Shown in pieces: positions 32,272 to 33,009 of a stretch of DNA of 64,000 bases. The stretch lies in NCBI GenBank assembly GCA_036253055.1, contig GCA_036253055.1_4124.1, one strand, 5' to 3'. The notes beneath the pieces were generated by a model. That model worked only from the letters and a program-made list of their open reading frames with translations. It was not told the origin of the DNA and made no database searches. Every line of letters starts with the position of its first letter. Position 1 is the stretch's first letter. This stretch comes from a phage. The position numbers and the translations under genes were made by a program.

Positions 32272-33009
32272 ATGTTACCTTTTGGAAGAATGGTAAAGTA
32301 CGGGAATAAAATTGAATATAAGCCAGATGGTGAACAATTAATCACGACAATAGGAACAACACAATTTACAGTTCCTGCTGGCGTTACCGAAATATCAGTA
32401 TGTGTTATTTCGCCGGGTGGTCAACGTGGTGCTGGTGGCGGCTTATCGTGGCGTAATAATATTCCGGTTACTAGTGGTGAGTACTTAAGTGTTTCTCTTA
32501 CACATCCCAACACTACTACAGCAGTTGAAAACGGTTTATATCGTGGAACTGAAAAACTATGTGTTAGCTTCACTGGTGAATATAGGGTTGGTGGACTAGG
32601 TGGGAAAGCTGCTAACGCTATTAATGATGGTGGTGGTAATGGGGGCAACGCTGGTGTAAGTGGTGGTGCAGTCATTGGTGGTGGTGCTGGTGGCTACACT
32701 GGTAAAGGTGGTAACGGAGATGCAATCACTGGTGAAAATGGTGCTGGCGGCGGCGGTGGTGGTGGTGCATTCTATAATACCTCGTTCATTGGTACGGGTG
32801 GTGGTACTGGTATCATTGTTCAAGGTGCTAATGGTATTGGCGGTAGATACGATGGTTCATATAATGGTGGTGCTGGTAGTGGTGGTGCTGGTAAGATGTA
32901 TGGTGGTGGTGGTAGTATATGGGATAATTTTTCTTATACGGCTGCTGGTGGTGGTGCTGTGCGAATAATATGGGGACGTGGGAGATATTATCCTAACAAT
33001 TCAGTCTAA
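32272..33009 (+). CDS. glycine-rich protein carrying the same MLPFGRM leader (non-RCC1 body)
   Basis: Start moved to ATG 32272 (SD AGGAGG); long GGxGG low-complexity tracts; same cassette and leader as the RCC1 paralogs. Confidence 0.65.
   Translation: MLPFGRMVKYGNKIEYKPDGEQLITTIGTTQFTVPAGVTEISVCVISPGGQRGAGGGLSWRNNIPVTSGEYLSVSLTHPNTTTAVENGLYRGTEKLCVSFTGEYRVGGLGGKAANAINDGGGNGGNAGVSGGAVIGGGAGGYTGKGGNGDAITGENGAGGGGGGGAFYNTSFIGTGGGTGIIVQGANGIGGRYDGSYNGGAGSGGAGKMYGGGGSIWDNFSYTAAGGGAVRIIWGRGRYYPNNSV

Follow-up and report, generated by a model that had tools for sequence, protein, structure and literature searches.

The DNA window analyzed here, a stretch of 64,000 nucleotides from an Escherichia jumbo phage of the genus Asteriusvirus (the 121Q/PBECO4/phAPEC6/E9.1 group), contains a tandem array of genes that begin with nearly the same residues, and it raises the question of why one member, with a glycine-rich body, carries the same leader as its RCC1-like neighbors. 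On the + strand, the start ML[P]F.R is common to eleven ORFs within 26191–38227. Pfam matches or similarity to paralogues identify ten of these as RCC1-like; the exception is the ORF at 32272–33009 (+), encoding 245 aa with the N-terminus MLPFGRMVKYGN. The first-pass annotation had described this ORF as an array member with the common leader and upstream cassette but another body, made without RCC1 repeats. The ORF itself, an alignment of all 11 junctions, and the Pfam contrast with its neighbors agree with that description: the neighbors match RCC1 families, and the ORF matches neither these (PF00415, PF13540, PF25390) nor any other Pfam family. Coordinates of the features discussed are collected in Table 1.

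The ORF is a genuine gene; its product is 100% identical to 121Q gp243 (“hypothetical protein”), and full-length copies are present in 18 phage records. Glycine makes up 28.6% of the body. Comparison with the copy in phage G17 gave a dN/dS of only 0.42, on a small number of differences (25 changes); a value of 1.1 obtained against the CMSTMSU copy was discarded because that copy, which is split in its UNVERIFIED record, is frameshifted. A longer ORF from 32254 does not represent the true start, its first codon falling within the promoter/Shine-Dalgarno region. One orthologue from a metagenomic contig (P0002, 206 aa, 80% identity) lacks a region that includes the 12-residue leader (MNKGG/NKIEYKPHGEQ...), and is either a natural deletion variant or an assembly artefact.

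Table 1. Array, cassettes, and parts of the glycine-rich gene, with positions in the 64,000-nucleotide window
Feature	Position	Strand	Remarks
Tandem array of leader-bearing genes: ten RCC1-like (some truncated/split) and the glycine-rich gene	26191..39155	+	Corresponds to 121Q genes 234-248
Intrinsic-terminator-like hairpin AGCCAGTAC-AAA-GTACTGGCT with T-rich tail	32207..32237	+	5′ part of cassette; stop codon of upstream RCC1 gene at 32200
Late-promoter-like element TATTAAATATAGTATAAT	32238..32255	+	Core TAAATA at 32241-32246, no −35 hexamer; putative function
Shine-Dalgarno AAGGAGG	32261..32267	+	4 nt 5′ of ATG; read directly from the sequence
Leader, codons 1-12, MLPFGRMVKYGN	32272..32307	+	N-terminal tag common to array; predicted flexible
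Linker, residues 13-19 (KIEYKPD)	32308..32328	+	Intermediate model confidence
Predicted TNF-like β-sandwich and polyglycine (“brush”) domain, residues 20-245	32329..33006	+	PF21722 relative
Stop codon TAA of glycine-rich gene	33007..33009	+	
Next cassette: hairpin 33015-33037, promoter/Shine-Dalgarno 33047-33076	33015..33076	+	5′ of RCC1 gene 33082-34224

That the ORF might be a frameshifted or decayed RCC1 gene read in the wrong frame, the outcome that the first-pass annotation had said would overturn its interpretation, is a reading we reject and consider to have practically no chance of being right: the low-complexity GGT-rich DNA does give long ORFs in other frames (32660–32968, +; 32421–32675, −; 32596–32823, −), one of which is annotated as gp004 in phAPEC6, but a six-frame tblastn of the 11 paralogues against 32200–33080 matched the 12-aa leader alone (E 1e-5 to 2e-3) and found no RCC1 similarity beyond it in any frame (remaining matches at E ≥ 0.19), the ORF is kept full length in all the records counted above, its body has a confident fold and a large family, and the homologue CBB_144 of Pectobacterium phage CBB was detected by mass spectrometry (MS; 5 peptides, 34% coverage). 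The long other-frame ORFs are by-products of the GGT-rich DNA. In phAPEC6 (MK817115.1) the true glycine-rich gene lies at 7325–8059, and the annotated gp004 (7716–8018) is a +1-frame artefact laid over it, with its window counterpart at 32660–32968; the published phAPEC6 proteome could therefore not report the glycine-rich protein.

Among 5.8 billion proteins searched, the glycine-rich protein had 197 homologues, mostly of about 250 aa, the remoter ones with the Pfam domain PF21722 (“glycine-rich domain”). The window protein itself gave no Pfam match at E ≤ 0.1 and did not reach the PF21722 gathering threshold, and Pfam was also negative for PF21722 in CBB_144, P0003, and P0016; NCBIfam gave no match to the ORF, and the only match in PHROGs was phrog_4474, a family with no assigned function. 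Proteins that score above the threshold are homologous to the window protein over the whole domain: the homologue P0038, which aligns with the window protein at E 1.4e-16 and 88% coverage, scores 32.7 bits against PF21722 (gathering 24.3) over profile positions 5–225 of 226, and the leader-bearing orthologue in Salmonella phage 7t3 scores 25.6 (gathering 24.3). AlphaFold2, run with a 97-sequence alignment, produced a model with pLDDT 93.8 and pTM 0.89, in which the body is predicted to form a TNF-like sandwich with a glycine-rich lattice, matching the “brush” head of Pam3 gp24. The only strong structural matches of the body are to tail-fibre/tail-tip proteins and a ligand-binding ectodomain, and those in BFVD are to phage glycine-rich proteins, a baseplate component, and a minor tail protein; a profile of the family alignment searched against PDB sequences found nothing significant (best E 0.16, spurious).

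The “brush” domains of Pam3 gp24, S16 gp38, and mycobacteriophages are polyglycine-rich receptor-binding domains (Pfam PF21722, Gly_rich_2). Sequence identity between the window protein and Pam3-type brush proteins is just 17%, and whereas Pam3 gp24 docks onto the baseplate via an N-terminal helical bundle, the window protein has the head without the bundle, with the 12-residue leader in its place. Family members outside the Rak2-like lineage begin with M[LI]E[LM]L instead of the leader. Two glycine-rich family genes are found amid replication and nucleotide-metabolism genes, one at 6001–6765 in CBB, between nrdD and nrdG, and one at 8998–9840 in the Salmonella phage Seunavirus NINP13076, directly 3′ of the DNA polymerase gene. 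Such surroundings are unusual for fibre genes and count against a fibre or docking role; the DNA polymerase adjoining the Seunavirus homologue is in itself uninformative as to function.

The extent of the leader was delimited by the junction alignment, in which the block common to the whole array runs from the hairpin to about codon 12–13. Similarity between the glycine-rich gene and the other members ends after TACGGGAAT (codon 12), and the RCC1 members alone share further residues, IAP(x)P, past this point. A leader common to the array thus stands as first proposed, but the part held in common with the glycine-rich gene is 12 residues long rather than 17. Residues 1–9 of the glycine-rich model have pLDDT <50. 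The RCC1 model has a mean pLDDT of 89.9, and its best matches in the PDB are UVR8 and RPGR; its residues 1–10 average ∼48, and its first blade begins near residue 22. These low values place the leader outside both folds, as the earlier suggestion that it is not part of the propeller had it. Among 19 RCC1 homologues, with divergent paralogues 21–30% identical to the query, M1, P3, F4, R6, Y10, and N12 are invariant, together with three glycines.

The same leader, M-[LI]-P-F-x-R-x-x-x-Y-G-N, heads proteins in phages 7t3, CBB, GAP32, XbC2, fHe-Yen9-04, and Serratia BF. The bodies behind it (RCC1, Kelch, Laminin_G_3, glycine-rich, and unclassified) belong to at least five confirmed unrelated families, with a sixth by record annotation. 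Thirteen array genes of 7t3 start with MIPF-x-R-I-L-x-Y-G-N, and the bodies that follow include RCC1 bodies, a glycine-rich one (where the true start is an upstream GTG, VIPFTKMLTYGN), and a 233-aa “structural protein” without a Pfam family. The CBB form, MLPF-x-R/I-x-x-x-Y-[GA]-N, is carried by ten proteins: three with Kelch (CBB_550, 552, and 554) and two with Laminin_G_3 bodies (CBB_548 and 551), the glycine-rich CBB_144, and four without a family (CBB_536, 537, 549, and 553). Further copies head GAP32_001 and GAP32_002, eight consecutive genes of XbC2, five genes of Yersinia phage fHe-Yen9-04 (one a BNR-repeat protein by record annotation alone), and nine genes of Serratia BF, two of them glycine-rich. 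A strict DNA pattern for the leader hit 5 of 2.9 million IMG/VR contigs, all jumbo phages of 348–378 kb; these hits added no new body types and bear on distribution only. In fHe-Yen9-04, XbC2, and Serratia BF a second flavor, MLPFPIISNTN, stands beside MLPFxRxxxYGN in the same arrays, and might address a second docking site.

Several members of the array in the window are incomplete. At 34295–35484 a truncated RCC1 gene of 269 aa is followed by a conserved non-coding remnant (35105–35484) and appears decayed, and at 38003–39155 a 74-aa leader fragment precedes a leaderless RCC1 ORF of 298 aa, the two appearing to be one gene split in two; 121Q has the same splits (genes 238/237 and 235/234). 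A perfect σ70 consensus promoter on the − strand (26113–26141; TTGACA, 17 nt, TATAAT) points off the array to a long run of small − strand ORFs, the 121Q counterparts of which (genes 249–255) encode 60–75 aa; the run is probably an early-gene region.

Most records give the RCC1 members a DNA-condensation name, and the corresponding reading would make all of the array proteins, the glycine-rich one included, DNA-condensation factors. The RCC1-repeat Pfam matches, the database names, and the fold match to RCC1/UVR8/RPGR propellers agree with it, but the “DNA condensation” name derives from a single eukaryotic family member, and the propeller is a generic interaction scaffold with UVR8 and RPGR as its best matches here. 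The bodies of the array proteins are, moreover, near neutral in charge and S/T/N-rich, not basic, and the same tag also heads Kelch, Laminin-G, and glycine-rich domains, which are not connected with DNA. We regard this reading as barely credible.

Upstream of the leader, the sequence common to the glycine-rich gene and the ten RCC1 genes is a block of ∼115 bp comprising a hairpin, a TAAATA-type motif, a Shine-Dalgarno sequence, and 12 codons. Its parts follow in the order hairpin (GCCAGTAC-NNN-GTACTGGC), T-rich run, TATTAAATATAGTATAAT, GAATAAAGGAGG, ATG, and ∼12 codons; a 30-nt core (TATTAAATATAGTATAATGAATAAAGGAGG) occurs 7 times at ≤3 mismatches, all within the array, compared with 0 in 100 shuffles. 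The hairpin folds as a 9-bp stem, and the phage G17 annotation lists this element as a terminator. A terminator-like hairpin and T-run lie 5′ of each cassette copy, and intrinsic-terminator-like sites number 15 on both strands versus 5.1 expected. No Rfam family at the gathering threshold and no tRNA gene was found in the window (1–64000), the cassette included.

A σ70 scan made no call in the cassette because there is no acceptable −35, and a σ70 promoter was rejected. The CBB authors described a MEME motif upstream of structural genes, which they compared with the T4 late promoter (PMC5259590), and the predicted late-promoter motif (CTAAATATAATATA and others) is listed in Table S7 of that paper. 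A motif of this type precedes CBB_537, 551, 552, and 553 among others, and TAAATA is also present upstream of GAP32_001/002 and the 7t3 genes. Since no σ70 promoter was called and the TAAATA element resembles the CBB late motif, we infer late expression, the cassette promoter being a putative late type by motif resemblance. The next cassette, 3′ of the glycine-rich gene, is predicted to terminate that gene and to drive the RCC1 gene that follows.

The first-pass annotation had taken leader and cassette together as one independent module. The variety of bodies that carry the leader in other Rak2-like phages strengthens the idea of independence, but judged from the sequences leader and cassette are separable and make two modules. 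Two window genes, 27402–28511 and 35485–36654, have only the leader and a Shine-Dalgarno sequence upstream of their bodies, with no terminator/promoter cassette, and all CBB leader genes lack a conserved cassette, their upstream DNA being dissimilar. The first of the two window genes begins 8 nt past the previous stop codon and the second comes after a 380-nt remnant; both are probably co-transcribed with the upstream gene.

To what extent the array differs between close relatives was seen by comparing the window with 121Q, phAPEC6, and E9.1, in which the flanks are 98–100% identical to those of the window. Genes 26191 and 35485 are absent from 121Q, 34295 is absent from E9.1, and 36726 is absent from all three, while 121Q has genes 28582 and 29793 in other places. 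At the site of a missing gene, the remaining match is 41–68 nt of cassette/leader alone; this applies to the RCC1 member at 36726–37931, which has no counterpart in the three phages beyond that stretch and is a strain-specific cassette insertion or replacement. Because array content and order differ between phages that are otherwise near identical, the cassette appears to supply the homology for gene shuffling, recombination taking place, we infer, at the cassette itself.

Similar elements are known from T4-type phages, in which PeSL (promoter-early stem-loop) cassettes, consisting of a repeated stem-loop terminator, a promoter, a Shine-Dalgarno sequence, and a start codon, lie between non-core genes (Arbiol et al., 2010, PMC2839356; Comeau et al., 2014, PMC4122927). 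The window cassette is a composite repeat of the same kind, and in both cases the repeats are where close relatives differ by indels and replacements. PeSLs, however, stop at the start codon, have stems made of G/C tracts, and carry early promoters of σ70-like type, whereas the window cassette has no σ70-like early promoter but a TAAATA late-type motif without a −35, has the GCCAGTAC palindrome, and extends its homology through 12 codons.

The extension of this homology into the coding sequence allows a reading in which the leader has no role as a peptide and is kept only as the end of a DNA or RNA block (promoter, translation initiation region, or recombination patch) homogenized by gene conversion. 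Asteriusvirus leader codons are indeed near fixed at synonymous sites (CCT 10/10, TTT 10/10, TTA 10/10) and directly adjoin a cassette of which several copies are identical, and the near-invariant leader DNA stands beside paralogue bodies of which the RCC1 members are only 24–37% identical among themselves. In CBB, however, the leader is kept with dissimilar upstream DNA, CBB_144 lies ∼270 kb from the other copies, and the conserved P, F, Y, and G are encoded there and in 7t3 by varied synonymous codons (in CBB CCA/CCG/CCT, TTT/TTC, and TAT/TAC). The window genes 27402 and 35485, too, keep the leader without the cassette, and the motif is conserved across those genera that have its canonical form. 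Retention of the leader with dissimilar upstream DNA and varied codons indicates that it is selected as a peptide, and we consider a role in DNA or RNA alone to be very improbable. Leader identity is 0.66–0.75 within genomes and 0.42–0.64 between genomes, and for every glycine-rich protein the leader has more in common with the rest of the leaders in that genome than with those of the orthologues. Such within-genome likeness is expected under one genome-specific partner, gene conversion, or both; by the sequence comparisons, the tandem arrays combine the two levels, with DNA homogenization superimposed on selection for the peptide.

Published virion proteomes connect the peptide to the phage particle. 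ESI-MS/MS of CBB identified 55 virion proteins of 554 ORFs (PMC5259590), and eight of the ten tag-bearing CBB proteins were detected (CBB_144, 536, 537, 548, 549, 551, 552, and 553), an enrichment among virion proteins with a hypergeometric P of 2e-7. The phAPEC6 structural proteome includes gp003, 005, 006, 007, 009, and 010 (PMC7247149), all of them tag-bearing RCC1 paralogues, and GAP32_001 was also detected by MS. These MS lists report presence in the particle, for outer and inner locations alike. With the tag on unrelated families and most members found in particles, it looks like a general virion label. For the glycine-rich ORF of the window we lean, by a small measure, toward a late gene with a virion-associated product.

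The reading we favor, with moderate confidence, is that the leader acts as a docking or incorporation peptide that would fix interchangeable binding heads to a common virion site. It is favored because the bodies are of adhesin/lectin type, the fold matches are to tail-fibre/tail-tip proteins, the proteins are near neutral, the tag is flexible, and N-terminal peptides with such a role have precedents; docking as the mechanism and an external location would both follow from these analogies. The closest precedents are the docking peptides of secondary receptor-binding proteins (K1E/K1-5/SP6, of 7 or 11 residues, and the Klebsiella KP32/KP34/Menlow/phiK64-1 groups; Latka et al., 2019, PMC6872550). 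Those peptides are N-terminal, 7–29 aa long, conserved within a phage group, and carried by unrelated exchangeable bodies, and are thought to plug into a common virion site (PMC6872550); the leader of the window is likewise a short N-terminal peptide conserved across unrelated bodies in one phage group. The two differ in that the Latka-type bodies are trimeric β-helix depolymerases with a T4gp10-like branching/adaptor domain as partner, whereas the tag described here precedes propeller, lectin, and brush bodies, numbers about ten or more per genome, and has an unrelated motif.

The main rival of docking is capsid targeting, in which the leader would bring the array proteins to the inside of the prohead, where they would become inner-body or ejected proteins, and might itself then be cleaved by the prohead protease. 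In T4, the capsid-targeting leader consists of ∼10 residues, takes small internal proteins into the head, and is removed by cleavage behind a conserved Glu. The genetic architecture of the T-even internal-protein loci is the same, with a short conserved leader in front of highly variable, polymorphic virion proteins. Those loci are hypervariable and plastic and have promoter/stem-loop flanks (PMC2839356). phAPEC6, furthermore, has an inner body, its authors suggested that the RCC1 paralogues might organize DNA in the head, and the virion MS is compatible with an internal location. The cleavage motif fits less well. Five of the ten CBB leaders have [LMI]-x-E at positions 7–9, resembling the T4 protease motif, but position 9 is K/N/R in Asteriusvirus and T/D/G/L/S/K/N in 7t3, and is E in those five CBB copies only, so that no T4-type site ([LI]-x-E) is conserved at the leader end. 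Unlike the T4 leader, the MLPF leader thus has no conserved Glu, and it sits on adhesin-type domains. Lectin/adhesin-type bodies with strong fold matches only to tail-fibre/tail-tip proteins and a ligand-binding ectodomain count against capsid targeting, as does the near-neutral, non-basic character of the array proteins, and 40-kDa propellers and heat-stable polyglycine domains (Pam3 gp24 Tm 76.6°C) would seem poor substrates for ejection through the tail tube. We therefore consider capsid targeting unlikely, while treating it as the alternative that deserves most attention.

Under the docking reading, the flexible 12-residue tag would precede a compact TNF-like and polyglycine “brush” head, a kind of domain used by tail fibres for receptor binding, and Rak2-like phages would place the tag on interchangeable ligand-binding heads, namely RCC1 and Kelch propellers, Laminin-G lectin domains, and glycine-rich brushes. 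With the tag, all of these heads may be anchored at one shared site of the particle, for which fibres or decorations on head and tail are candidates. At the level of expression, the cassette hairpin would end the upstream gene, and the TAAATA-type late promoter with its strong ribosome-binding site could give each gene autonomous late expression; the ∼115 bp of near-identical cassette and leader DNA may meanwhile promote homologous recombination that adds, removes, reorders, and homogenizes array members. A broader and more tentative proposal, which we offer as a possibility somewhat less probable than docking itself, is that MLPFxRxxxYGN and MLPFPIISNTN constitute a display tag across the Rak2-like lineage, in which 12 residues would be enough to put any one of a genome's dozen interchangeable lectin-like heads on a shared docking site, possibly the hair-like head/tail fibres. 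The tags would then co-evolve with the site, and the cassette-flanked array would serve as a plug-and-play library that reshuffles adhesin repertoires between phages.

A limited full-text literature search, together with the genome papers of related phages, found no prior description of the leader tag, which looks previously undescribed and akin to docking peptides, the T4 capsid-targeting sequence, and PeSL cassettes. Rak2-like phages (121Q, PBECO4, phAPEC6, CBB, GAP32, and relatives) have unexplained hair-like appendages and most of their genes are without an assigned function, and their RCC1 arrays are still named “DNA condensation proteins” in most records. One short tag on ten or more virion proteins per genome provides a sequence rule by which virion components can be predicted, and speaks for annotating the arrays anew, with modular binding heads in place of DNA-condensation factors. 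The idea of gene shuffling by regulatory cassettes, so far applied to early ORFan genes, would also cover late structural genes, here with homology reaching into the coding sequence. The tag may also allow the docking site to be found and, possibly, foreign proteins to be displayed on a very large particle.
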